Below, piece by piece: positions 30,984-46,456 of a stretch of DNA of 64,000 bases; positions within the stretch are counted from its first letter, which is position 1, and every line of letters begins with the position of its first letter. The notes under the pieces are model-generated. The model ran no database searches and was not told where the DNA came from. It saw only the letters and a list, made by a program, of their open reading frames with translations. The translations under genes were made by a program, and so were the position numbers. The DNA is taken from contig JBCQUH010000004.1 in NCBI GenBank assembly GCA_047174185.1, forward strand, positions 2,656 to 66,655, read 5' to 3'. This DNA is from Rikenellaceae bacterium (GTDB lineage Bacteria > Bacteroidota > Bacteroidia > Bacteroidales > Rikenellaceae).

Positions 30984-33704
30984 ATGAAAACATTTAAATT
31001 AACAGCTATGCTGTTATCTTTGGTGATGGCACTCTGCTTTACATCATGTGAGGATTTGATCGAGGATGTGGATCTCCCCACTGCATCTGCAGCTACGATT
31101 TCGAGTGCTGAGGCAGGAGATGGTCGTGTGAAGGTCGCATGGGAGATTCCAGAGGATGAAAATATCACCAAATGTATGCTGATTATCGTAGCGGAAGATA
31201 ACTCCGTGGCTCAGAGCAAAGAGTATACCGTTAGCTCACTGGAGCAGAGCTTCAGCGAGAGTATCACCAATCTTGAGGCTGGGACATATACGATAATGGT
31301 CAAGAACTATGGGGCTACCCTGATCAACTACACAGCAGTGACTACGGTTCTAACCGTCTACGATGCAACGACGTACGAGACAATTCCGACGATCACGGCA
31401 GTTACGGATGGCGACTGGAGCGAGGCCTATTTTACGGTGAAAAATCTACCCGACGATCTATATAACATAACCATTACATATAATAAAAAGGCGAATAGCT
31501 ATCTTGCGACAGAGATTCCCGAAGATGGCATCATCACAATTGCATATGTGACAGATATCTTTGACTTCACCTATACCGCTTCGTTTATGCCCGAGGGGGG
31601 ATTAGACGAGGTTGTGTCGCAGAGCATCGGAAGTGGCAGCATCCTACTATCCGACCCAACAATTCCAATCGTGGCATCGCCTACAGTTTCGAGCGCCAAG
31701 GCAGGAGATGGCCGAGCGGTGATTGCATGGAGCGTTCCCGAGGATGAGTATGTCACAAAATGTGGATTAACCATCACCGCATCAGACAACACCGTTGTCA
31801 AGAGCGTCGAGTACGCTGTCGAGAGCTTGGGACAGAACTTTAACGAGACCTTCACAGAGCTTGCGGTGGGCACCTACACGGTAAAGATCCAAAACTACGG
31901 AGATATAGAGATCAATTCGACGGCTGTGGTTAGAACAATAACCGTTTACGACGCTGCGAGCTATACATCGATCCCAATAATTACGGCAACGACAAATAAG
32001 TTGGGTGGCGAGATTGAGTTTACGGTGACCGACCTACCCGACGATCTATACTATATAACGATCTCATACAACGGTGATGATTACGAATTCTTCGCAACGG
32101 AGATCTCTTCGGAGGGCGATGGAGTGCTCACCATCGAGTATGTGACGGATATCTATGACTTCACATACACCTCATCATTCAAGCCAACGGGAGGTCTCGA
32201 CGAGGTCACTTCGGCAAATATCGGACAAGGTAGTGCAACGACAATGATTTTTGATATTGTCTTCGATGGTACGACATATGAGATCTATACCGAGGTAGGA
32301 TTTGCAGCCTTCTCGAATCTTGTAAATGGAGGCACGACGTATAAAGATGCTAATATTTATGGCGATGGCATCCCTACATTTGGAACGCTCAACAATAATA
32401 TCAACGCTAAGTTGATGGAGGATATTGACCTTAGCACCATCTGTAGCGCGACACTTGGCAGCTGGACACCTATCGGCGATTGGGAGACCATAAATACATA
32501 CATGTACTATGGCGGTACGTTCGATGGCAATGGCAAGAAGATCTCGGGATTGTATATCTCAACTGCAGATAAGTCATATCAGGGGTTGTTTGGATATACA
32601 TCGGAGACGGCAGTGATCAAAGACTTCACGCTGGAGTCACCAGTGATTATCAGCACCTCGACGGCCAAAGATAACGCTATTTACATTGGAGGCTGCATTG
32701 GTTATGCCACTGCATCTACGATCTCGGGCATTACGGTTAACAACCCAACAATCTCGTCGGACGATGCAGGTATTGGAGGAGTCGTTGGATATGGCGCAGC
32801 CTATGCTACCGTTAGCGATTGCCACACCATCGGTGGTACTATCGCTTGGTCTGGAACCTACCTAACATCAAGTGGAGGAGTCGGAGGCGTTGTTGGCCGA
32901 GCACAGCTTACCGATATCTTCTACTGCACGAATAGCGCCACGGTAACAAGCGGCAGACTGGTTACATCTACCGATACAGGAGTTGGTGGAATCGCGGGGC
33001 GATGTGCAGGAAATCTATTTGTTGGATGTTCAAATTCGGGAAGGATCGAGGGCTACACTTGTATTGGAGGAATCTGCGGTCGTGGTCAGGCTGGTATCTT
33101 TATTGGTTGCTACAACGACACAGATGCGGAGATTGTCTCTACAGGAGACATGCACAGTGGCGGTATTGTAGGCTATAACCATGGTGCAGCAGGAATAGCT
33201 ACTGGACATGCTCGAGTTTATGGATGCTACAACAGAGGTACAGTTAATGGCAGTGTTAACACTGGAGGTATCGCTGGCAACAATAGTATCAAGTATAGTA
33301 AGATTGCAGGTTGCTACAACATTGGAGCCATCTCTAGTTCAGATGATACGACTATTGGAGCGATCGCAGGAACGACGGCATACGATGGGTCACATACCAC
33401 AATCTATACATCTTACTACTTGAATAGCACCTGTTCACTAGGTCTTGGAGGTACTTATGCCACCACCTTTGCAGGTGTGATGATCGGAGTTGACAATATC
33501 TCAGATATCAATACAGCCGAGGCTGTTGCTGCATTGAACGCTGCGCTTGATAACGTTTACGAAAATACAGATAATAAGTCAGGCACAACGATATTCCCAG
33601 ATGGTATCGACACATACTGTAAGTATCGATGCAAGTGGGAGGTTGACGCTTCGGGGTCGGAGCCTAAGATTGTAATATACGATAATCCTTACTACGCGGA
33701 GTAA
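30984..33704 (+). CDS. surface lipoprotein: two ~188-aa Ig/Fn3-like modules plus a GLUG-motif beta-helix-like C-terminal region
   Basis: Lipobox LCFTSC. Module 1 is 31083-31643 and module 2 is 31674-32237. The C-terminal part has FDGNGKKISGLYI...GLFGY and many GG(I/V)(A/V)G repeats about 25-30 aa apart (GLUG-like). Confidence 0.7.
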   Translation: MKTFKLTAMLLSLVMALCFTSCEDLIEDVDLPTASAATISSAEAGDGRVKVAWEIPEDENITKCMLIIVAEDNSVAQSKEYTVSSLEQSFSESITNLEAGTYTIMVKNYGATLINYTAVTTVLTVYDATTYETIPTITAVTDGDWSEAYFTVKNLPDDLYNITITYNKKANSYLATEIPEDGIITIAYVTDIFDFTYTASFMPEGGLDEVVSQSIGSGSILLSDPTIPIVASPTVSSAKAGDGRAVIAWSVPEDEYVTKCGLTITASDNTVVKSVEYAVESLGQNFNETFTELAVGTYTVKIQNYGDIEINSTAVVRTITVYDAASYTSIPIITATTNKLGGEIEFTVTDLPDDLYYITISYNGDDYEFFATEISSEGDGVLTIEYVTDIYDFTYTSSFKPTGGLDEVTSANIGQGSATTMIFDIVFDGTTYEIYTEVGFAAFSNLVNGGTTYKDANIYGDGIPTFGTLNNNINAKLMEDIDLSTICSATLGSWTPIGDWETINTYMYYGGTFDGNGKKISGLYISTADKSYQGLFGYTSETAVIKDFTLESPVIISTSTAKDNAIYIGGCIGYATASTISGITVNNPTISSDDAGIGGVVGYGAAYATVSDCHTIGGTIAWSGTYLTSSGGVGGVVGRAQLTDIFYCTNSATVTSGRLVTSTDTGVGGIAGRCAGNLFVGCSNSGRIEGYTCIGGICGRGQAGIFIGCYNDTDAEIVSTGDMHSGGIVGYNHGAAGIATGHARVYGCYNRGTVNGSVNTGGIAGNNSIKYSKIAGCYNIGAISSSDDTTIGAIAGTTAYDGSHTTIYTSYYLNSTCSLGLGGTYATTFAGVMIGVDNISDINTAEAVAALNAALDNVYENTDNKSGTTIFPDGIDTYCKYRCKWEVDASGSEPKIVIYDNPYYAE

Positions 33705-33775: not shown

Positions 33776-35596
33776 ATGAAAAGAATAACGAAACTAATAA
33801 CCTCTCTACTCTCGTTGGCCATGATCCTCTGCGCCACATCGTGTACAGAGGATTCAAATGTCGATCTATCTATACCCGATGTAGATCCATCGGTAATTGT
33901 CAATCTACAGGCAGGAGACTCTAAGGCAGCAATATCGTGGGTCGCACCAGAGGACGAAAACATCACATCGTGCTACATGAGTATCAAATCATCAGATGGC
34001 ACGATACTCAGTAAAACTAAATATGATGTACTAATCACAAGCCAACGATTCAACGAGACCATAACCGACCTAGAGGCTGGGGAGTACACCTTCGTGATCG
34101 AGAACTATGGCACAACCGATATAAACTCGGATGTTGCCACCAAGAGTGTGACCGTTTACGACGCTACGACCTACACCTCGATCCCAACCATCACGGCAGC
34201 TACGGATGAGAGCAATAGCGAGTCGATATTTAGCGTATCCGACCTGCCCGAGGATCTATATAGCGTAACAATCAGATACAATCAGGCAAATTACACCTAC
34301 GACTATGCGGATTTTGCGACAGAGGATATTACGATTGCATATGTTTCGAATGTTAGCAAATATACATATACAGCAGCATTCAAACCAGAGGATGGACTCG
34401 ACGAGGTAACTAGCGAGAAGTCAGGAAGCGGCACAATCACCATAACAGGAGCGGTGGAGCCAGAACCTGAGCCTGAACCCGAGCCTGAACCTGAGCCAGA
34501 CACACAGATCTACAATGGACTTATCCACACGGACGCGACGATCCTAAATATGAGTAAGATCATAGAGGCTCAAAACTTCTCGAGCGAGGCCTATAAGTGC
34601 TATATCTATATGATTCAGCACAATAAGGCACAGGCCGATTTCTCCTATACGGCCGTAGAGGATATGGATATTCAGTTGGCTGCAAGCAACTACGTCAATG
34701 ATTTCGCTGCAATCTATATGAACGCCATACTATACGCCACAACAGGCGATGAGGATCATGCAAATATGGCTGCGACGATAATCAAAAATTATATGACTGC
34801 ATGCACAATCTATAAGACATCGCCAACGACCAACACCCCTCTACTTGTCGGAGTGGGATATAGCCTCTTCTGCGCTTTTGAGCTGCTCAAGACCTATGGC
34901 ACATTCTACGAGGATAACTACGACGAGTTCTCGGCATGGATTCGAGAGATGTATGAACCGATGTTTGAGTACTTCTACAACCTAACACCATATACCAATG
35001 GTAACTGGGGAATGACGGTTTCCAACACATACCTTACGATGGCCGCCTTCTTGAAGGATGAGGCGATGTATGAGGATGCAAAGGATAAATTCCTCCACCG
35101 CTACGACAACGGTTCGATGGATCACTATCTCGACTCTGTGACTGGTCAGTGCCAAGAGTCGGGTCGCGATCAGGGACACGTGCAGTTTGGACTCTCGCGT
35201 GCCGCTACGGCCTGCGAGGTTGCATGGAACCAAGGCGACGACCTCTACTCCTATAACGACAACGTTCTGCTCAAGGGTTTTGAGTATACGGCAAAGGTTC
35301 TACTCAACTACCTAAAGGGCACGAATTACGATGTTCCATATACAAAATGGACTGACATAACGGGTAAATATTGTAGCTGGAGCAGCATCAATGCAGGAGG
35401 AGGAGATAGCAACAACTACTACCGTCCATGTTGGTTCATCGCCTACAACCACTATGTAAATCGCATGGGGCTAGAGATGCCATACACCAAAGAGTTTATC
35501 GAGTACTCGGAGTGGGGAAAAAACCCTGGCAACTACTACTTCTACGACGGCACGTGGTTTGAGGCATTCCAATGGAACCACGAGTATATAGAGTAA
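33776..35596 (+). CDS. surface lipoprotein: one copy of the same ~188-aa module, an (EP)7 linker and an alginate-lyase-like (alpha/alpha toroid) domain
   Basis: Lipobox LCATSC. Module 3 is 33884-34438. The C-terminal motifs NGNWGMTVSN and QESGRDQGHVQFGL resemble Alginate_lyase (PF05426-type) proteins as I remember them. Confidence 0.6.
   Translation: MKRITKLITSLLSLAMILCATSCTEDSNVDLSIPDVDPSVIVNLQAGDSKAAISWVAPEDENITSCYMSIKSSDGTILSKTKYDVLITSQRFNETITDLEAGEYTFVIENYGTTDINSDVATKSVTVYDATTYTSIPTITAATDESNSESIFSVSDLPEDLYSVTIRYNQANYTYDYADFATEDITIAYVSNVSKYTYTAAFKPEDGLDEVTSEKSGSGTITITGAVEPEPEPEPEPEPEPDTQIYNGLIHTDATILNMSKIIEAQNFSSEAYKCYIYMIQHNKAQADFSYTAVEDMDIQLAASNYVNDFAAIYMNAILYATTGDEDHANMAATIIKNYMTACTIYKTSPTTNTPLLVGVGYSLFCAFELLKTYGTFYEDNYDEFSAWIREMYEPMFEYFYNLTPYTNGNWGMTVSNTYLTMAAFLKDEAMYEDAKDKFLHRYDNGSMDHYLDSVTGQCQESGRDQGHVQFGLSRAATACEVAWNQGDDLYSYNDNVLLKGFEYTAKVLLNYLKGTNYDVPYTKWTDITGKYCSWSSINAGGGDSNNYYRPCWFIAYNHYVNRMGLEMPYTKEFIEYSEWGKNPGNYYFYDGTWFEAFQWNHEYIE
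34457..34498 (+). repeat. (Glu-Pro)x7 coding microsatellite linker
   Basis: gagcca/gaacct/gagcct... hexanucleotide units that encode EPEPEPEPEPEPEP. Confidence 0.95.
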
Positions 35597-35702: not shown

Positions 35703-35809
35703 TTTATTATGAAGAATGAATCGAAGCTAAAATATCGATAGCGATTGTATAATCCCATAATTTTCGTACATTTGTGGCAAGTTCTTACACTTCTAACAGT
35801 CGTATTAAT

Positions 35810-36451
35810 ATGTCAAAGTTCACTACCCAAACGCTCCCATTCGATGGGCCGATAATCATAACTCCCAACAGCGTGGGAGAGCCTCGTAACTACCTCACCG
35901 ACATCAACGATACGGATGAGCTTCTGCCACTGTTAGAGATGGAGGAGGGTGAGGAGTTTGTTGTCCAGAGCGTTGAGACAATGCCTCGTGGTGTGCTGCG
36001 CGGCCTACACTTCAACCGCAAAACGCCACAGGGGTTGTTGATTGGTGCCACATCGGGGGCGATACTTATGGTCGTGGTCGACCTGCGCCCCGAGAGCAAA
36101 ACCTTTGGCGCATCACACGCCATAGAGCTGTCGGCCGAGAACCAACAGATGATCTACATCCCCAAGTTCTATGCCCAAGGCCTGCTAACGCTCGAGCCAC
36201 ACACCGAGGTGGTGATCAACTACACGACCGAGAGCACCCCCAACAGAGAGTCGGGGATCATCTGGGACGATGAGATATTGATGATCGATTGGAAGTTCGA
36301 CCGCTACGACATCGACTCAAACCGTCTAAACATGACGGCAAAGGATAAGAAACTACCGAGCTTCCGCTCCTACAACCAACACGACCTATGGCCAGGGCGC
36401 ATAATCAAGAGAAGTTATGCGCTTAAACGTCTGCTTAATAGCAAGTTATAG
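35810..36451 (+). CDS. RmlC-like cupin (dTDP-4-dehydrorhamnose 3,5-epimerase family), probably divergent or non-canonical
   Basis: 213 aa from the ATG at 35810. It has RGVLRGLHFN and VVVDLRPESKTFG...LSAENQQMIYIPKF, as in RmlC. There are no rmlA/B/D neighbours. Confidence 0.65.
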   Translation: MSKFTTQTLPFDGPIIITPNSVGEPRNYLTDINDTDELLPLLEMEEGEEFVVQSVETMPRGVLRGLHFNRKTPQGLLIGATSGAILMVVVDLRPESKTFGASHAIELSAENQQMIYIPKFYAQGLLTLEPHTEVVINYTTESTPNRESGIIWDDEILMIDWKFDRYDIDSNRLNMTAKDKKLPSFRSYNQHDLWPGRIIKRSYALKRLLNSKL

Positions 36452-36483: not shown

Positions 36484-37161
36484 CTAGCGGATCGAGTTCA
36501 TGCGTATGCTCGCCTTGACCAATGCTAGGGCGCGTATGCGACTCATCTCTATATCCTTATCGGCATGGTGCTGGTTCTGACTCACGAGACGAACACACTC
36601 TGGGCGATCGCTCTTTTGGATATATTTCACCGTAACATACTCCTCGCCGTCGAGATCTATCGACAACAGATACATATCGCCCCAGAAGATATCGCCAATA
36701 TCGGACAACTGTTTGTAGAGCACTATATCACCACTCTTAAGCAGCGGATACATCGAATCACCAACGATATATATAGCCCCATCGCACTTTGGCAGATTGG
36801 GAATATGTATATAATTGACTGGTTTGGTATTGTTCGAACTATTGAACAGCGGCACCAAACCAGCCGTCCCCTCGATAGCATAGAGGGGCACACTCTGTAG
36901 CGGCACTGCCGAATCTGTGCGATGCATAAATGTCTTTAGATTTGGCTCGGCACTAAACATCTCACCCACACCACTCTCCACCCACTCGGGGTTGACATTA
37001 AATTCTTGAACCAAGATGTTTAGATTGCGAGCCGACAACCCTGCCTTCCCAGTTTCGATCATCGAGAGTGCCGCTTTTCCCACCCCTAGATGTTGTGCAA
37101 GCTGCTCCTGAGTCATCTCTAGTCGCTTGCGAATTAGCTTAAATCTTTCATTAGGCATCAT
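36484..37161 (-). CDS. cI/LexA-type repressor: XRE-family HTH plus S24 peptidase domain
   Basis: 225 aa with the HTH MTQEQLAQHLGVGKAALSMIETGK, the S24 motif IVGDSMYPLLKSGDIV, a later Lys (TVKYIQK) and a possible Ala-Gly cleavage pair in IEGTAGLVP. Confidence 0.8.
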   Translation of the reverse strand: MMPNERFKLIRKRLEMTQEQLAQHLGVGKAALSMIETGKAGLSARNLNILVQEFNVNPEWVESGVGEMFSAEPNLKTFMHRTDSAVPLQSVPLYAIEGTAGLVPLFNSSNNTKPVNYIHIPNLPKCDGAIYIVGDSMYPLLKSGDIVLYKQLSDIGDIFWGDMYLLSIDLDGEEYVTVKYIQKSDRPECVRLVSQNQHHADKDIEMSRIRALALVKASIRMNSIR

Positions 37162-37204
37162 AATATAATCAATTTATTTAATTTTTTAACTCAAATACTA
37201 TTGC

Positions 37205-37231
37205 AATATCAATATTTTGATATTATCTTTG
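37205..37231. promoter_or_regulatory. candidate operator palindrome AATATCAA-N4-TTGATATT abutting a TATCTTTG -7 box for rightward transcription
   Basis: The palindrome is 37205-37224 and the TAnnTTTG match is 37224-37231. Both lie in the 133-bp AT-rich divergent region between the repressor and the 97-aa ORF. Confidence 0.45.
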
Positions 37232-37294
37232 CAGCTACAAAGTTAAACCATTTATTATAAACAAACAAATTTTATAACAAAATTATCTCAAAAA

Positions 37295-37588
37295 ATGTTC
37301 AAAATAGACAACACAATCTACAAACAGCTGGCCGAAGAGCTAGCGCAACAGATCCAATACAATAGATTATTCGCTGGATCTATCTCGATCGACACCGACG
37401 ATGCCGACGTAAAATTTACCGCCACCCTAATCCCCCACTTCAAAACCATAGAGTTTGTCGACGACTCGGCCGATGTGCTAGACGACATCACACCCGTATG
37501 GTGGGAGGTCGATACCACGACACTCGACGGAAAGGTGCTAAACGACTTCGATTTTCAAACATTCAAAGAGTATATCTGCCAATGGTAA
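37295..37588 (+). CDS. hypothetical very acidic 97-aa protein
   Basis: The ORF has an ATG start. By my count it has 19 D/E versus 7 K/R. Its stop overlaps the terminase start (ATGGTAA). I do not recognise a family. Confidence 0.5.
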   Translation: MFKIDNTIYKQLAEELAQQIQYNRLFAGSISIDTDDADVKFTATLIPHFKTIEFVDDSADVLDDITPVWWEVDTTTLDGKVLNDFDFQTFKEYICQW

Positions 37589-39087
37589 AGCACAAAACAT
37601 CAACCACTTCAACTTGCGACACAAGTACAATTTTAGAGCCAAAAGAGAAAACAACTCAACAAAATAGCACAACGCCCGAACAGACACCATCGCTCGAGGA
37701 GTTTGCACGCACCATATCGCCCTCCATCGAGTTCGAACACTTCCACGAGATATACTACAAGTTGCTCGAGAGTTTCGCCATGGGCGAGATCCGCAAACTC
37801 ATCATCACCATGCCTCCGCAACATGGCAAGAGTCTGGGGGCGACCACCATACTCCCAGCATATATGTTGGGGCTAAATCCCGATTTGCGCATAGCCATCG
37901 CCTCCTACTCCTCGTCGCTCGCCTCGAAGTTCAATCGTCGCGTACAGAGAATCCTAGAGTCTAAGGAGTACAACGAGCTATTCCCCCAGACCACCATCAA
38001 AAAGGGGGCAAAACCTGCAAACTACATCCGCACCAGCGAGGAGGTCGAGATCATCGACCACCAAGGGTCGCTACTATCGGTCGGACGCGAAGGGTCGCTC
38101 ACGGGCAACCGTGTCGACTGTTTCATCCTCGACGATCTATACAAAGATGCTATGGAGGCCAACTCGCCCCTCATACGCGAAAACTGCCTCGAGTGGTATA
38201 CATCGGTAGTCAAGACCCGCATGCACAACGACTCAAGCGAGCTGATCGTATTTACGCGTTGGCACGAGGAGGATCTAATCGGCACCCTCACACAGCGCGA
38301 GCGATACCACCCATTCTACGCCTTCGACCAACTCCTCTCGACACCCGATCAGGAGTGGACATATCTCAATTTCGAGGCGATCAAGACATCTGAACCCACC
38401 ACCATCGATCCGCGCCAGATTGGCGATGCGCTGTGGCCAAGCCGCCAAAATGCCGACCTTCTGCTCCAAAAACGCGCCCTCGATCCCATGCGCTTCGAGT
38501 GTATGTACCAAGGCAACCCATCGTCGCGCGACGGACTGCTCTATGGCGACAACTTCAAGGAGTACGACGAGCTGCCCACCTCGATCCTGCGACGCGAGAA
38601 CTACACCGACACGGCCGACATGGGCGACGACTATCTATGTTCGATCTGTTACTGCGTGGGCGACGACGAGCTGATCTACATCACCGACATCGTCTACACG
38701 CGCCAACCCATGGAGGTAAGCGAACCGATGGTAGCCCAGATGCTAATCGACCAATCTACGACGCGCGCCGCCATCGAGAGCAACAACGGTGGACGCGGAT
38801 TTGCGCGTGCCGTGCAACGCCTCGCCCCACACGTCAAGGTGGAGTGGTTTCACCAGAGTGCCAACAAACAGGCACGCATACTCTCCAACTGTGCCACAGC
38901 GATCCACCGTCTACGCATGCCACGCGGATGGAAACAAGAGTGGAGTGAGCTTGCAGCCCACCTCACGACATATCGCCGCTCCTATCGCGCCAACCGTTGG
39001 CACGATGCGGCAGATGTTATAACTGGAATTGTTGAACGCGAGAATATATTGGCGAAAAGCGCCAAACGCTCTCTCACATTCATTTAA
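37582..39087 (+). CDS. phage-type terminase large subunit (TerL; Terminase_6-like ATPase plus RNase-H-like nuclease)
   Basis: Walker A MPPQHGKS, Walker B-like VDCFILDD, and nuclease acidic motifs YTDTADMGDD, IESNNGG and WHDAADV. I prefer the ATG at 37582 (MVKHK...). Confidence 0.75.
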   Translation: MVKHKTSTTSTCDTSTILEPKEKTTQQNSTTPEQTPSLEEFARTISPSIEFEHFHEIYYKLLESFAMGEIRKLIITMPPQHGKSLGATTILPAYMLGLNPDLRIAIASYSSSLASKFNRRVQRILESKEYNELFPQTTIKKGAKPANYIRTSEEVEIIDHQGSLLSVGREGSLTGNRVDCFILDDLYKDAMEANSPLIRENCLEWYTSVVKTRMHNDSSELIVFTRWHEEDLIGTLTQRERYHPFYAFDQLLSTPDQEWTYLNFEAIKTSEPTTIDPRQIGDALWPSRQNADLLLQKRALDPMRFECMYQGNPSSRDGLLYGDNFKEYDELPTSILRRENYTDTADMGDDYLCSICYCVGDDELIYITDIVYTRQPMEVSEPMVAQMLIDQSTTRAAIESNNGGRGFARAVQRLAPHVKVEWFHQSANKQARILSNCATAIHRLRMPRGWKQEWSELAAHLTTYRRSYRANRWHDAADVITGIVERENILAKSAKRSLTFI

Positions 39088-39100
39088 AAAAGAGTAGGGA

Positions 39101-39550
39101 TCAACGGTCTGATGGGCTACACATCTCATCGAGCAGGTCGAGATACAGATTCTCTTTGCGACGCATCTCGGGGGCTTCGGCCTCCGATTTGTCGCCCTGC
39201 CCACAGAGGTGCAACACACCGTGGACAACTATTCGGTGCATCTCGCGCAGAGGTGTGGAGTCGAAGTTACGGGCATTATCCGCCACCGTCTCGACATCTA
39301 TATACAATTCACCTGCGATAAATCGCATAATATCCAAATCGCTATAGTCGAACGTTATGATATCGGTATAATAGTCGTGTCCCAAAAATTCGCGATTCAT
39401 AGCCAACAGACGCTCGGCCGAGCAGAAGATCACCCCCACATCTTCAAGTTCATACCCCTCACGTGCGGCCACCTCACGCAGCCAACGACCAATCAGCCTA
39501 CGCTGCCCGAACTTATACTTGCACCCATCGTGGTGATAATGTATCGCCAT
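39101..39550 (-). CDS. ybeY: rRNA maturation RNase YbeY
   Basis: Zinc motif HGVLHLCGQGD. I prefer the ATG at 39550 (MAIHYHH), 4 nt after the upstream gene's stop. Confidence 0.88.
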   Translation of the reverse strand: MAIHYHHDGCKYKFGQRRLIGRWLREVAAREGYELEDVGVIFCSAERLLAMNREFLGHDYYTDIITFDYSDLDIMRFIAGELYIDVETVADNARNFDSTPLREMHRIVVHGVLHLCGQGDKSEAEAPEMRRKENLYLDLLDEMCSPSDR

Positions 39551-39554
39551 AATT

Positions 39555-40673
39555 TTACCTTTTAAAGCAGTTTGCAGCACTCACCTTCTCCGTCGATTTT
39601 GGCGGATATAATCCAAAGACAATCTTATATTCGCTCTCCAACGTGATGATGTTTACCGACTCACCGATCACACCAATCTGTTGGTCACGCGCCACGACAT
39701 CACCCTTAGCCACAGAGATTTGAGACAATCCGCCATACGAGGTAATATACTCACCGTGAGCGATATAGACATCATAATTATTGGTGATCTTATTGCGCTT
39801 CACATCCATCACCTTACCAGCATAGATCGAGGTCACCTTCGCACCACGCGCACCCAACACCTCGGCCATATTCTCCATATACTGCTTCACACGCCCCCCT
39901 GCGACAGGGAGTGTGAGACCCGAGGTCTTGGCCGAAAACGAGGCTCCCGTCTGATTGCCAATGACCAGCGCCTGCAACTTCTTGATCTCGGTATCGAGCT
40001 GACGCTTCGCCAATTCGCTCTGCTGCATCGCCTTGCGCTCACGGCTCGACATCGAGTTGATAGTCGCACGAGCCGAATCGACATCGCTCTGCAAACGGCT
40101 CCGCTGAAGTGTCAAATCCTTCACCACACCATCCAACTCCGCTTGACTCGCCACCAACGCCATACGCTGCACACCCAACTGTGCAGACAACGAGTCGATA
40201 TGATCCATACGCTCTCTGCGCAACTCGGCCAAAGCCCTCACATTCGACATTCGATAGGCCAACTCATTGAAATCGCTCGACGTAAAGATATAGCTCAACA
40301 ACGTGCGACCATGGTAGCTACGGTAGGCCTCGCGAACCATCTGAGCATACCCCTCACGCTCCGCCTCCAACTCACCGCTCAACGTCGTAGCGTTCATATC
40401 GAGTGTCGCCACCTCCGAACGCAGACGCACCGCCTCGAGTCGCTGCGCCTCCAACAGACGGTTACGCGTAGCAATCTGTTGAACCAACGCCCCCACACGC
40501 TCCTCGCTAGCCGCCTTATCCTTGCGAAGCTGTGCCACTTCGCGTTCGCTGCTGGCGATCTGCTTCTCCAACGTCGCGATCAAGCTACGCTGCTTATCTA
40601 TTGCATCATCGGCTCGCGACACCTCAAACGTCAAGAGCATCACCACACACAATATAATATCTCTCAATCTCAT
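39555..40673 (-). CDS. EnvC-like murein hydrolase activator (coiled coil plus degenerate M23/LytM domain)
   Basis: 372 aa with a signal peptide, a long coiled coil rich in Q/R/E/L, and a C-terminal LytM-like fold that lacks the HxH metal motif. Confidence 0.7.
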   Translation of the reverse strand: MRLRDIILCVVMLLTFEVSRADDAIDKQRSLIATLEKQIASSEREVAQLRKDKAASEERVGALVQQIATRNRLLEAQRLEAVRLRSEVATLDMNATTLSGELEAEREGYAQMVREAYRSYHGRTLLSYIFTSSDFNELAYRMSNVRALAELRRERMDHIDSLSAQLGVQRMALVASQAELDGVVKDLTLQRSRLQSDVDSARATINSMSSRERKAMQQSELAKRQLDTEIKKLQALVIGNQTGASFSAKTSGLTLPVAGGRVKQYMENMAEVLGARGAKVTSIYAGKVMDVKRNKITNNYDVYIAHGEYITSYGGLSQISVAKGDVVARDQQIGVIGESVNIITLESEYKIVFGLYPPKSTEKVSAANCFKR

Positions 40674-43585: not shown

Positions 43586-46369
43586 CTACTCTATATCGTA
43601 GAGCATACGAACACCCGACTGCGTCTTGGCACGACGACCAACAATCGTATGCTCCACGCCATGCTGATCAACATAACTCAACTCCGCTTTTGTCGAACGA
43701 GGCAACGCCAAACTAAACGCGCCATCCGACTCGATCGACAACACGCCATCGCGCCACTCAACAAGAGCCGTCACACAATCATCACTTGCAATAATCGCGC
43801 AATCCGCCATAGATATATAACGGCCATTCCCCAAAAATAGTCTCTCCAATTTATCGCTAGACGACATAGCCACCACGCCATAGATACCCTCGAACTCCAC
43901 ACCCTTAAATGGCGTGCGCTCCGCCGCCACCTCCGTATTATTGAATATCAACTCGCGGCTCTTGTCGCTGTGGCAAACCTCAACCATCACCAAATCAGAC
44001 GTGCGGCTATCGGTGTAGTTCACCGATTCGATCGAACGACCCTCGCTCTGTGAATATGGCTCATAGATAGCCACAAATGGACGATCCCATGCCTCGCCAC
44101 TTTGACGCACCAACAACAACGGAATCTCCATATCATCGAGACTCTTTGGCAACACACCACTATACCCCTTAGCAACCTTAGGTGTCATAACCGAGAAGAT
44201 CGTACGCCCCTCCTCTCCCTTCATCCAGACATCCATCGAGACCTTGTCGCGACCATCAGTAGGATCCAACTCAAAGGTTGCACGAATGTCGCCATCGTAA
44301 CTCACCTCACGCTTTTGAGTCATATAGTCATACCCCTTGGCACGACCCCCTGCCGATGTCAAATCTTGGCTCTCGCCCATCGCCAACGCCTCGCCACCAG
44401 CGGCCGAAATGGTCAACGACTGACCCACATTGTGATACAAATATTCATGCATCTTATCACCCCCTTCGATCTTGCTCGAACGGAAGATGTCGACATAGTA
44501 ACCGCTGCTCTCCGAGGTGCGAACCACACCATTGGTACGACGCTGCTGTGAATTGGTCGAGGTCTCGTGGAACGTATTATCCGCATACAGAATCGACACT
44601 TCACGCGCTGCATCGCCCCTGTTCGACACAGGGAAATATGACAACAGAGCATGTTGTGGCGACGACTCACCAGGCAACATCTCGGGACTACTATTCTTCG
44701 AACGGCCATCGACCACAACTGTATTGTGGCTCACCGCAGCCTTATAGTATTCACGATGGTCGGCCGACCAGTAGCTGCTACCACGACCCTTGTCGACACC
44801 CAAAACGTAACCCTCACCATACAACTCCAGACTCATTCCATTGTCGCTATTGTGGTTGAAACCTGTTCCTGCATTGATCAACATCAAGGCATTTTGGCGA
44901 TCCAAACCACTGCGCAACATCGACAAATTGACATTGGGAGCGTAGAACAATGCCGAATAGAGCGAACTTCCGTCGGCTCTGATATCGCCCAGATCCTCAA
45001 CATAGTTAAACAACTTATACATCGTCACACCACGCTTTCTCTCATAGAGCCCATTGGCCACTCGATCGTTGAGAACCGCGGCTGTGCTCTGCAACTTATC
45101 ATCCATACCATATCGTTTATAAAACGACAAGAGAGATTCAAACATCGTATTATCAATCAGCGAATATCCATTGTCGCCAAATCCCGTAGTTCGAAGATTG
45201 GGCATCTCATACTCCATCGAAGCCACCGCAGCACGCTCCACGATCTCGAAATCGCACAGCAGGTTCTCCCCATCCAATCCATCGAGCAACAAAAGAGCCT
45301 CAAGCAGATCCTTGGTGGTGTTTGTCGAGTAGATAGGCGACTCGTTCCACATCGCTGTATTGGGGTCATAAATATCACGCACCTCTTTGAGTGCACGCTG
45401 ACGCTCCACACTCTTATTCAACAAGAAGTCGGCATAGTACTCGCGCCCCTTGCCATTCTCATAGTCTGCGTCGCTCTCTAGAACCAATGCCAAATATGAG
45501 ATGAAACGCGCTTGGAACACATTCCAGTTATTATCCGACACTCCATTTACAATCACCTGGTCGGCAAACTTCTGGAACACCGCCTGCATACGAGCCACAT
45601 CTGCACGACGCTCATGCAGATAGTCGTACAAGAAGTCGTAGCACAAAGTCATCGAAGGGATCACACCTTCGTGGATCACCTCAAACGAGGTCAAACCCAC
45701 CACATGAGCATTGCGAGTATCGCCCTCGGCCACAGGAGCTTCGCGATAGTACAACCCATCGGTAAAGACCTTGAGAATATCATATGCAAACTTTGCATAT
45801 CGCTCATCGCCATCGAGCCAATACAAGAATGCACTATACATCGCCTTGGTTACGATCGAGACATTGATACCCTCTACCTTATGGGCACTCTTGCCAGTGT
45901 CGACCCACTCCCATGGAGAGCCTGGCTTAGTGGGATTTTGCAGATATATCTGATCGTCATTATAATCCATAAATGGTCGTATATCCTCCAACGACGGAGT
46001 ACGATAGATGCTCGACCAATCACGTCCTCCCGTAAAACGAACCGTTGGCACTGGCGCATGACCCTCGGCACGAGAATACTCGCCACCATTAATGTAAGGG
46101 GTCGTATAGTGATTTTTCCAATACATCTGCAATCGCGAGATGATCCAAATGCTATCACTAACATGACGCTCTACATATTGATCCACCTGATCGTGCGCCA
46201 TCTTAAGCATAGGTTTCGCCCACTCCAAACGCTCCATTCTCTCGACCACCTCGCCCTTTGTCATCGAGGGGTATGTACGAATTGTCTTGTCGGCAGAGGC
46301 CTCTGCGGCCAACGGCAATAGTGTTGCGCCTAGCAGCAGCGCCGAGATAAATAATCCTTTTGATTTCAT
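43586..46369 (-). CDS. heparinase II/III-like polysaccharide lyase family protein, secreted
   Basis: 927 aa from the ATG at 46369 (MKSKGLF...). The C-terminal segment HNSDNGMSLELYGEGYVLGVDKG...AVSHNTVVVDG resembles the Hepar_II_III domain, and the N-terminal part is an alpha-helical toroid-like region. Confidence 0.6.
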   Translation of the reverse strand: MKSKGLFISALLLGATLLPLAAEASADKTIRTYPSMTKGEVVERMERLEWAKPMLKMAHDQVDQYVERHVSDSIWIISRLQMYWKNHYTTPYINGGEYSRAEGHAPVPTVRFTGGRDWSSIYRTPSLEDIRPFMDYNDDQIYLQNPTKPGSPWEWVDTGKSAHKVEGINVSIVTKAMYSAFLYWLDGDERYAKFAYDILKVFTDGLYYREAPVAEGDTRNAHVVGLTSFEVIHEGVIPSMTLCYDFLYDYLHERRADVARMQAVFQKFADQVIVNGVSDNNWNVFQARFISYLALVLESDADYENGKGREYYADFLLNKSVERQRALKEVRDIYDPNTAMWNESPIYSTNTTKDLLEALLLLDGLDGENLLCDFEIVERAAVASMEYEMPNLRTTGFGDNGYSLIDNTMFESLLSFYKRYGMDDKLQSTAAVLNDRVANGLYERKRGVTMYKLFNYVEDLGDIRADGSSLYSALFYAPNVNLSMLRSGLDRQNALMLINAGTGFNHNSDNGMSLELYGEGYVLGVDKGRGSSYWSADHREYYKAAVSHNTVVVDGRSKNSSPEMLPGESSPQHALLSYFPVSNRGDAAREVSILYADNTFHETSTNSQQRRTNGVVRTSESSGYYVDIFRSSKIEGGDKMHEYLYHNVGQSLTISAAGGEALAMGESQDLTSAGGRAKGYDYMTQKREVSYDGDIRATFELDPTDGRDKVSMDVWMKGEEGRTIFSVMTPKVAKGYSGVLPKSLDDMEIPLLLVRQSGEAWDRPFVAIYEPYSQSEGRSIESVNYTDSRTSDLVMVEVCHSDKSRELIFNNTEVAAERTPFKGVEFEGIYGVVAMSSSDKLERLFLGNGRYISMADCAIIASDDCVTALVEWRDGVLSIESDGAFSLALPRSTKAELSYVDQHGVEHTIVGRRAKTQSGVRMLYDIE

Positions 46370-46456
46370 AAAATATATTTTAGTTTTAGCATCCTTCCAG
46401 ATCTGCAAATTTATAAAAAATAAGGTGAAAAATAGCGTAATTCAAGAATAAAATAG

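Follow-up and report, generated by a model that had tools for sequence, protein, structure and literature searches.

A 64,000-nucleotide (nt) stretch of the genome of a Rikenellaceae bacterium (contig JBCQUH010000004.1; this whole stretch is referred to below as the window) carries, at positions 36484-39087, a compact unit of three genes. We consider it probable that this trio is a domesticated phage module that is inherited vertically as a host gene set and is controlled by its own divergently transcribed switch. One gene encodes a cI-type repressor, and it is transcribed divergently from a pair of genes, orf97 and terL, which encode a small acidic protein and the large subunit of a phage terminase (TerL). 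An earlier reading of this DNA, called the first-pass annotation here, had proposed a retained module or a domesticated terminase, and this proposal is favoured by the conservation of the three genes as a unit, by the ratio of nonsynonymous to synonymous substitution (dN/dS, or omega) of TerL, and by a conserved promoter and operator layout. What the module does is a more tentative matter. Perhaps a packaging motor and an acidic partner with a new fold serve as a damage-triggered host effector, either as an unlinked capsid-piracy or gene transfer agent (GTA)-like export arm or as a capsid-free nuclease.

The positions of the open reading frames (ORFs), the gaps that separate the unit from its neighbours (32 nt between the repressor gene and an RmlC-like gene, and 13 nt between terL and ybeY) and all protein motifs quoted in the first-pass annotation are reproduced by an ORF listing and a motif check. 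The profile searches that it recommended gave matches to Terminase_6N, Peptidase_S24 and HTH_3. Its statement that it knew of no described system with this composition also agrees with the literature that was searched, in which none was found.

Distribution and vertical descent of the trio

Relatives of TerL were sought by scanning one genome per species with peptide patterns, and 20 kb was examined per related genome. There are 286 matches, and the best 80 of these, which were analysed, are all from Rikenellaceae/Alistipes. In essentially every sufficiently long locus, tblastn gives the same gene order and orientation (repressor on the minus strand, orf97 and TerL on the plus strand). The repressors of these loci are 62-86% identical to the window protein (only one locus falls outside 71-86%), the TerLs 64-80% and the orf97 proteins 21-56%. 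When the flanking ORFs are clustered, only the three trio families are common, with 74, 72 and 65 loci, and the next largest cluster is present in 19. The same trio is found in an abundant human-gut Alistipes on the basis of independent gene calls with precomputed Pfam annotation, and the orf97 protein of this bacterium occurs in 4190 blocks of the collection.

The genes on either side of the trio form at least 8 arrangements, which are stable within sub-clades. These include beta-galactosidase, trio, RimP-NusA-IF2; KorAB-EamA, trio, nitronate monooxygenase-TsaD-TamB-ExbBD; KduI/KduD, trio; and a ybeY-M23-TPR-PheS block that is located either to the right of the trio (the window and its closest relatives) or to the left, with the trio inverted (locus L014). 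The first-pass annotation had suggested looking for synteny of the unit next to ybeY, and this association did not hold, because the ybeY block is beside the trio in only about 8 of the 80 loci. There is no portal, capsid, tail, lysis, integrase or replication gene in any flank arrangement, and no phage structural gene is located within 10 kb in the 80 genome loci or in loci L083-L086.

In L014 (8403-11419) it is the repressor end of the trio that adjoins the ybeY-M23-TPR-PheS block, whereas in the window (36484-39580) it is the terL end. Therefore, either the trio or a larger segment that breaks exactly at the 3' end of ybeY has been inverted. Two distinct trios with different flanks (L002 and L018) are present in one metagenome-assembled genome (JAWXSU01, isolate FM_05_G121_IV), and their TerLs are 73% and 74% identical to the window TerL. 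Either there are two copies per genome, or the bin mixes two species.

Disrupted copies are found in contigs of IMG/VR. In L096 (1358-1882; 3300029417_000148) and L098 (3300029592_000166), terL is cut just after Walker B (…FILDDLYRK, then a stop). Beyond the break, both contigs continue into homologous low-GC foreign DNA (91% over a 1.1-kb stretch that spans the junction), which includes the gene for an 819-aa leucine-rich-repeat surface protein. The break goes back either to a single ancestral insertion or to an element with terL as its target. In L091 (2399-8019; 3300029706_000261), the gene after terL encodes another S24 repressor, which is unrelated (26% identical), and next comes a 667-aa ORF that corresponds, in size and position only, to the transposase of Mu-like Porphyromonas phages. 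This locus looks like a trio in which a transposable prophage landed, which would explain why the host region is catalogued as viral.

Selection was estimated as dN/dS by the Nei-Gojobori method, and only unsaturated close pairs were interpreted, dS being saturated for distant pairs. Omega is 0.03-0.12 for TerL, 0.005-0.05 for the repressor and 0.03-0.29 for orf97, compared with 0.02-0.13 for NusA, IF2, RimP, TsaD and KorAB in the same genome pairs. Thus, the dN/dS of TerL, an estimate that the first-pass annotation had recommended, is at the level of housekeeping genes and is not neutral, and these values suggest that purifying selection on the trio is as strong as that on translation factors. 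Furthermore, the dS of the trio is of the same order as that of flanking genes in the same genome pairs, which indicates that the trio diverged with the chromosome by vertical descent.

All 76 chromosomal TerLs form one clade that excludes phage sequences in a simple neighbour-joining tree, which suggests that they have a single origin. The nearest phage TerLs are from temperate phages in IMG/VR (53-65% identical), followed by those of the Bacteroides B40-8/B124-14 group (43-48%, with B40-8 at 48%) and of Parabacteroides phages (about 44%). Among these relatives, L089 is a phage with an integrase and a tape measure protein, and its TerL, which is 58% identical, is preceded by a small terminase (TerS; PHROG 606). 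The nearest phage repressors, at 46-54% identity, are those of Mu-like Porphyromonas phages and of a Winogradskyella phage.

A complete large terminase

The terL ORF opens at an alternative upstream ATG at 37498, which would yield a protein of 529 amino acids (aa). The likeliest start is the ATG at 37582 (501 aa), because this codon overlaps the orf97 stop codon and is used by the independent gene call P0001. TerL matches Terminase_6N (6e-8) and PHROG 38 'terminase large subunit' (1.4e-82 over residues 60-521), and its C-terminal nuclease part matches TIGR01630 (7.6e-15 on residues 378-513 of the 529-aa ORF) as well as PHROG 5573 and 30251. The quoted motifs MPPQHGKS, VDCFILDD, YTDTADMGDD, IESNNGG and WHDAADV are all present, as they are in the TerL of Bacteroides phage B40-8. 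The protein has the residues of an ASCE ATPase, coupling motif included (Walker A G82-K83-S84, Walker B D184-D185, and T225-R226-W227-H228), and the acidic residues of an RNase H-like nuclease (D343/D346/D350, E399 and D475/D478).

The claim that the terminase is fully intact is borne out by 75 orthologues, in which catalytic residues are 99-100% conserved. GKS, FILDD and TRWH are 100% conserved and the acidic nuclease residues are invariant. Of the 501 positions, 188 are at least 98% conserved, and these span MPPQHGKS, FILDD, TRWH, DTAD-GDD, ESNNGG and HDAAD completely. M347 within YTDTADMGDD is non-catalytic and is Thr in most orthologues. An AlphaFold2 model has a mean confidence score (pLDDT) of 79, with disorder confined to the two ends of the protein and three short stretches within it. 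In Foldseek searches, this model matches full-length solved terminases (PhiV-1 with an E value of 5e-19, T4 gp17, Sf6 gp2 and D6E) and the nuclease-domain structures of Sf6, RB49 and SPP1, and the list also holds the resolvase Ydc2 and RecBCD subunits at low rank. A sequence search of the PDB with TerL gives distant matches only. Like its phage relatives, the protein retains the C-terminal tail [basic]-x-x-F-[LM]. TerL is thus predicted to be a complete ATP-driven DNA translocase and nuclease. What is missing is the context of phage morphogenesis, as the upstream gene does not encode a TerS and no structural gene is nearby.

Residues 1-35 of TerL form a disordered, Ser/Thr-rich N-terminal extension (37582-37690 in the window). 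Such extensions vary freely among the chromosomal TerLs, ranging from 0 to more than 60 residues of low-complexity sequence rich in Ser, Thr, Lys and Pro, and they are predicted to be disordered (pLDDT below 40). The phage TerLs that were aligned full-length are without an extension of this kind.

An orphan acidic protein in the position of the small terminase

The orf97 protein of the window has an isoelectric point (pI) of 4.05 and a net charge of -12, and the family, found upstream of terL in 65 loci, has a median pI of 4.4 and a median net charge of -11. There are 348 homologues in a search at 90% identity, all of which are about 95-100 aa long and are unnamed or annotated as 'hypothetical'. 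An exhaustive hidden Markov model (HMM) search of 1.84 billion representatives retrieves no more than the same small family (440 clusters at 50% identity), in which no member is fused to a known domain. All named sources of these homologues are Alistipes or Rikenellaceae. The invariant residues are W69, W70, D84 and F85.

No match to orf97 is found in Pfam, PHROG, NCBIfam or PADLOC, and 48 orthologues searched individually against PHROGs at E<=1 give scattered noise only. The AlphaFold2 model has a pLDDT of 94.3 and an alpha-beta4-alpha topology, in which one helix precedes and another follows a sheet of four strands, two of which are very long. A Foldseek search with this model against PDB and BFVD yields nothing below an E value of 0.01 (the best TM-score, 0.46, is to an unnamed viral protein), and the orf97 profile finds nothing below an E value of 0.5 among PDB sequences. 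The orf97 protein represents an orphan family that is confined to Rikenellaceae/Alistipes and for which a novel alpha/beta fold is predicted with confidence. When the back-translated pattern PVWWEFH was sought in viral contigs, it was found only in trio-bearing host flanks and in two contigs (L095 and L097) that have no tblastn match to any trio protein.

The terL start codon overlaps the orf97 stop codon or is located no more than 12 nt from it in 47 of 64 loci, and in the window the overlap reads ATGGTAA. Because the phage relative L089 carries its canonical TerS in this same slot, orf97 appears to have replaced the small terminase in the chromosomal unit. The possibility that orf97 is itself a small terminase is ruled out by the lack of similarity, by its strongly acidic character and by the canonical TerS of L089. 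Recognition of DNA by orf97 is unlikely because the protein is so acidic.

A predicted self-cleaving repressor and its candidate operator

The repressor has an N-terminal XRE/HTH_3 DNA-binding domain (HTH_19/HTH_3, 1e-12) and a C-terminal S24 self-cleaving peptidase domain (Peptidase_S24, 2e-11), and it matches PHROG 4 'transcriptional repressor' (1e-32). Both motifs noted for it, GDSM and IEGTAGLVP, are found in the window protein. Among 73 orthologues, the region of the recognition helix is nearly invariant, and A100-G101, S136 and K179 are conserved in 99%, 100% and 99%, respectively. These residues are candidates for the cleavage site, the nucleophile and the base. The spacing from Ser to Lys is 43 residues, which is also the spacing in lambda cI. 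Thus, the protein has the helix-turn-helix domain, the S24 domain with a Ser-Lys dyad and the Ala-Gly site of self-cleaving repressors of this type, and RecA-stimulated self-cleavage with derepression on DNA damage is therefore predicted from the conserved Ala-Gly, Ser and Lys residues. The repressor is the most conserved of the three proteins. In PADLOC-DB v2 it matches generic HTH models only, and a sequence search of the PDB gives distant matches only.

Two promoters are predicted in the region between the repressor gene and orf97. TAnnTTTG is the -7 consensus of Bacteroidetes promoters, as known from Bacteroides. When 64 orthologous intergenic regions were anchored on their common motif and compared, head-to-head boxes of the form TAnnTTTG-N(3-7)-CAAAnnTA were found in 62 of them, mostly with a spacer of 5 or 6 nt. 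In the window the two boxes are 6 nt apart, and the leftward box, CAAAGTTA, is almost invariant in the alignment. Boxes so close to one another mean that the two predicted promoters overlap.

Immediately beside the -7 box of the orf97-terL promoter there is a perfect palindrome of 18 bp, ATATCAA-TATT-TTGATAT (Table 1). This candidate operator, termed O1, has the core ATCAA-N4-TTGAT at 37208-37221 and is the sole perfect match within the window. A dyad is present at the same place in most of the 64 intergenic regions, where the usual form is TTCA-N5-TGAA and the general form is TYCA-N5-TGRA. Symmetric variants include TCCA-N5-TGGA in some lineages and ATCAA-N4-TTGAT in the window, L006 and L010. 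Because both halves of the dyad vary together between lineages, the pattern resembles the symmetric two-arm change that a dimeric DNA-binding protein would impose, and the repressor is the probable ligand of this dyad. The dyad falls inside the terL-side promoter, in the interval from its -33 to its -7 element, and also within the leader of the repressor transcript, a location that fits repression of orf97-terL and autoregulation of the repressor at once. A candidate operator dyad in its own promoter region, at a conserved position, is a further feature that the repressor shares with other S24 repressors.

Further upstream, at a distance of about three helical turns, many Alistipes loci have another dyad, TACAA-TTT-TTGAA, which is imperfect. 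The perfect sequence TTCAA-N3-TTGAA is found only inside trios among 1.33 Mb of retrieved loci, and neither the window nor these 1.33 Mb of flanks contain another perfect operator site. The relaxed form TTCA-N5-TGAA is not enriched outside trios in the same loci. No sign of a wider regulon was seen in the window or in these loci: the one-mismatch sites in the window (7 compared with 3.1 expected) are a marginal excess and are located in coding regions or at gene ends.

In about 35 loci, a perfect operator-like palindrome, GTTCAAGA[AT]TTGAAC, is present about 145 nt into the repressor coding sequence (for example L021:9377), and it is absent from the corresponding position near 37010 in the window. 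As a third operator (TTCAA[AT]TCTTGAA) this element was rejected in favour of a by-product of V-Q-E/D-L-N codons, because the palindrome is lost wherever CAG replaces CAA. It may nevertheless act as a weak auxiliary operator.

Comparison with known systems

The closest architectural precedent is FddR of Francisella, a co-opted phage S24 repressor that is found clade-wide together with divergently transcribed cargo (PMC13148647). Both units are self-contained, have a cI-like S24 repressor of phage origin and occur across a clade in a lineage that lacks a canonical LexA. Both also have a palindrome in the shared promoter that points to autoregulation, which for the trio is a prediction from sequence. 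However, the repressors are from different lineages, and the motif GTG-N11-CAC of FddR differs from TYCA-N5-TGRA here. The cargo of FddR is a single uncharacterised gene or dinB, whereas that of the trio is a terminase and an orphan acidic protein. Induction and binding have been demonstrated experimentally for FddR (PMC13148647), whereas the trio is known from its sequence.

The non-canonical LexA proteins of Bacteroidetes are likewise chromosomal repressors of phage origin (Sanchez-Osuna et al. 2021; PMC8565304). They are found in the same phylum, combine HTH_3 and S24 domains with the AG, S and K residues, and use dyads with 4-bp arms and a 5-bp spacer. These regulators control repair and mutagenesis genes, whereas the sole demonstrable target here is the terminase operon. 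Both of their groups, which recognise CTAA-N5-TTAG and GGA-N5-TCC, are stated to be absent from Bacteroidales (PMC8565304), and neither sequence is the operator in the intergenic regions of the trio. Membership of the trio repressor in this family was rejected because BLASTP against the C-terminal domain of the validated protein WP_025606010.1 (P. actiniarum) gives an alignment of only 30 residues at GDSM, with an E value of 0.02. The trio would work like the FddR and non-canonical LexA units and is a member of neither family.

The TerLs of Bacteroidales siphophages (B40-8/B124-14, the 'Paboviridae' of Parabacteroides/Alistipes, and L088-L090 of IMG/VR) share full-length homology, the catalytic motifs and the character of the C-terminal tail with the chromosomal proteins, at 43-48% identity for isolates and 53-65% for the IMG/VR phages. 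The phage copies are located behind a canonical TerS (PHROG 606 in L089) and are flanked by portal, head or tail genes. In contrast, the chromosomal TerLs form their own clade, have the variable low-complexity N-terminal extension and are located directly beside a cI-type repressor.

Vertically inherited, host-controlled packaging enzymes of phage origin are known from GTAs. The GTA of Rhodobacter (RcGTA) is one such case, in which the small-terminase partner is degenerate or non-specific and there is a link to SOS/LexA. The trio resembles GTAs in having a vertically inherited, phage-derived packaging enzyme under purifying selection. It differs in that the GTA terminase is located in or next to a head-tail cluster, whereas no structural gene is linked to the trio and no head/tail cluster is present in the local flanks that were examined. 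We know of no GTA in Bacteroidota.

Phage satellites such as SaPI/PICI (with TerS and Ppi), P4 and PLE are mobile, carry integrase, replication and att functions, and typically encode a TerS or a terminase inhibitor. A chromosomal packaging gene that is derepressed with a helper phage and acts on foreign capsids would be common to satellites and the trio. The trio differs in that it encodes TerL rather than TerS and is inherited vertically. The suggestion in the first-pass annotation that the unit could be satellite-like was therefore set aside: a phage satellite is rejected because there is no integrase, replication module or att site and because the dS of the trio is like that of its flanks.

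Proposed mechanism and alternative explanations

At rest, a dimer of the repressor bound to O1 would exclude RNA polymerase from the orf97-terL promoter, and the repressor would also regulate its own synthesis through the same operator in the leader of its transcript. On DNA damage, RecA filaments would stimulate self-cleavage of the repressor at Ala100-Gly101 by means of Ser136 and Lys179, and the operon would be derepressed. The orf97 protein and TerL would then be produced together, as suggested by the overlap of the two genes, or a gap of no more than 12 nt between them, in most species. This regulatory half of the mechanism is well supported by the anatomy of the locus. The anatomy, the conservation, the selection and the covariation of the operator halves are observed directly, and from these we infer the binding of the repressor, its dependence on RecA, a complex of orf97 with TerL and the biological role of TerL. 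The orf97 protein would fill the slot of the small terminase, most likely as a TerL-binding regulator, adaptor or DNA mimic.

One tentative possibility for this role is that TerL acts on capsids that are encoded elsewhere. These could derive from co-induced prophages, from infecting Bacteroidales siphophages (whose TerLs are 55-65% identical) or from an unlinked GTA-like head/tail set. TerL would then package or cut DNA without sequence specificity, which would amount to packaging piracy or interference on foreign capsids. This capsid-linked role is ranked first because the ATPase, the linker, the nuclease and the phage-like C-terminal tail have been kept while the specificity subunit has been lost. 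A whole packaging motor normally requires a portal.

Several observations weigh against the view that the trio is a domesticated module with such a role. There is no capsid, portal or tail gene within 10 kb of any locus or among the window ORFs that were scanned. In all GTAs known to us TerL is linked to head genes, and a capsid-linked TerL would therefore need a partner that is foreign or encoded at an unlinked site. Conserved catalytic residues would be superfluous in a pure decoy or blocker, as would the ATPase in a pure nuclease, so that neither model fits perfectly. The TerL sequence is extremely conserved, whereas an enzyme that tracks diverse phage portals might diversify. The predicted dependence on RecA is read from the residues of the repressor. 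Some lineages can do without an intact module: the terL reading frame breaks off after codon ~188 in L096 and L098, and it is truncated at about codon 438-443, beside a Mu-like prophage, in L091.

Ranked close behind the capsid-linked role is an effector that needs no capsid, which we regard as possible if doubtful. Once derepressed, TerL would be an ATP-driven nuclease or translocase that acts on chromosomal or phage DNA. Its purpose could be altruistic self-destruction or abortive infection, degradation of induced-prophage DNA or repair-type processing of ends or junctions, with severe DNA damage or a phage-triggered SOS response as the trigger. The acidic orf97 protein would serve as a DNA-mimic safety catch, much like an antitoxin. 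The absence of structural genes nearby in any of the 8 or more contexts agrees with such a role, and an orf97 protein that has a charge of about -11, is co-translated with TerL and is not itself a TerS would suit an inhibitor or mimic. The nuclease fold of TerL is RNase H/RuvC-like, as is reflected in the low-ranking Foldseek matches, and isolated terminase nucleases cut DNA non-specifically. Furthermore, units composed of an S24 repressor and divergent cargo normally carry DNA-damage functions (PMC13148647). However, no PADLOC-DB v2 defence model matches TerL or orf97, and a simple nuclease would not need the conserved motor, linker and phage-like C-terminal tail. Isolated TerL monomers are also generally poor ATPases and nucleases when there is no portal or TerS.

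It is improbable that the repressor is the true host asset, as an SOS-type global regulator of Bacteroidales or a phage-immunity repressor, with orf97-terL as silent cargo that is kept by linkage or by an addiction-like effect in which loss of the repressor unleashes a toxic terminase. The repressor is indeed the most conserved of the three proteins (71-86% identity, omega down to 0.005), its 4-N5-4 dyad has the same geometry as CTAA-N5-TTAG and TTAC-N5-GTAA, and the reported absence of both non-canonical LexA groups from Bacteroidales (PMC8565304) leaves a vacancy for an SOS regulator. Nevertheless, silent cargo would decay, whereas TerL has an omega at the housekeeping level, near-invariant residues at 38% of its positions and intact catalytic residues in 75 species. 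Addiction would select for the repressor and not for retention of the toxin. The lack of additional perfect operators in the window and in 1.33 Mb of flanks, and of orthology with a validated non-canonical LexA, also speaks against this reading.

Finally, a decaying or recent prophage remnant, phage satellite or mobile element that is intact here by chance is hardly credible: the phage origin or context of all three genes (TerL 48% identical to that of B40-8, repressor 46-54% identical to those of Porphyromonas phages), the dip in GC and the different neighbourhoods between lineages would be in keeping with it, but selection is at the housekeeping level, dS matches that of flanking genes, the chromosomal TerL clade is monophyletic, integrase and replication genes, att repeats and tRNAs are absent, the low GC is limited to the promoter region and orf97, and the neighbourhoods are stable within sub-clades, as ordinary genome rearrangement would give. 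A neutral remnant in particular is ruled out by the omega values, by intact ORFs in about 75 species and by the conserved catalytic residues. The domesticated module thus remains the preferred reading, and the judgement in the first-pass annotation that a prophage remnant is a poor explanation is upheld by the conservation of the trio as a unit, by purifying selection and by the invariant catalytic residues.

The locus and its surroundings in the window

The features of the unit and its immediate neighbours are listed in Table 1. The GC content falls to 0.39-0.43 across the intergenic region and orf97 and is otherwise not reduced. Beyond ybeY there are genes for an M23 peptidase and a TPR protein, followed by pheS. 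Ten further large ORFs were scanned (9 to the right of the trio and 1 just upstream), of which 8 belong to ordinary metabolism or proteostasis, including sulfatases, a permease, transketolase, ClpX, trigger factor, MetH and MTHFR. The other 2 have DUF4998/GLUG matches only, or none. In line with the statement of the first-pass annotation that it saw no other phage gene, there is none among the window ORFs scanned, which comprise the trio flanks and these 10 large ORFs (ORFs at 1-30000 were listed and not scanned). No tRNA, Rfam RNA or att-like flanking direct repeat was found around the trio in a search of the window.

Table 1. Positions of the trio, its candidate control elements and its adjacent genes in the window
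Feature	Position	Strand	Description
RmlC-like / dTDP-sugar-epimerase-like gene	35774-36451		left neighbour; Pfam dTDP_sugar_isom
repressor gene	36484-37161	-	225 aa; from ORF listing
candidate operator O1	37206-37223	no strand	perfect 18-bp palindrome
-7 box, rightward orf97-terL transcript	37224-37231	+	TAtcTTTG (TATCTTTG); consensus TAnnTTTG
-7 box, leftward repressor transcript	37238-37245	-	TAACTTTG; putative promoter element
orf97	37295-37588	+	97 aa; from ORF listing; first gene of operon
terL	37582-39087	+	501 aa from the likely ATG at 37582
ybeY	39101-39580	-	right neighbour, convergent; Pfam YbeY

To the left of the RmlC-like gene, two adjacent genes (30984-33704 and 33776-35596) encode large predicted lipoproteins, both with a repeated DUF4998-like N-terminal module. 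The first is internally duplicated and carries GLUG repeats, and the second has an alginate-lyase domain after an (EP)7 linker, EPEPEPEPEPEPEP, near 34450. They have the appearance of a surface pair for the degradation of polysaccharides. A 940-aa ORF (43586-46408, minus strand) that has no Pfam match at E<=1e-5 separates pheS from two tandem sulfatase genes.

Implications

There is no report in the literature we searched of a free-standing or domesticated large terminase that is kept by a bacterial lineage under such a switch, and nothing relevant was found on an Alistipes terminase with a repressor or SOS. The new part is the cargo, whereas the architecture of repressor and cargo has precedents. 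Terminases are regarded as hallmark virus genes, and a free-standing one that is kept throughout a major family of gut bacteria would be a new case of the recruitment of viral machinery. The trio has a substantial chance of proving to be a new functional class when it becomes clear what the terminase does. If the reading proposed here is true, the trio would stand for a kind of domesticated phage function that has so far gone undescribed, and a GTA-like or capsid-piracy export system would be the first in Bacteroidota. With its compact operator and its orphan acidic partner, the system should be easy to test.

There is also a practical consequence for the annotation of genomes. TerL commonly serves to mark phages and to assign hosts, and the chromosomal TerL will score as 'prophage' in Alistipes genomes and metagenomes. 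Several 'viral' contigs of IMG/VR hold a chromosomal TerL only as host flank. With regard to the biology of the order, Bacteroidales are currently described as having no LexA-like regulator, and the trio would be the first candidate for an SOS-type circuit in these bacteria. As such, it fits the proposal that SOS networks are rebuilt from self-contained units of repressor and cargo.

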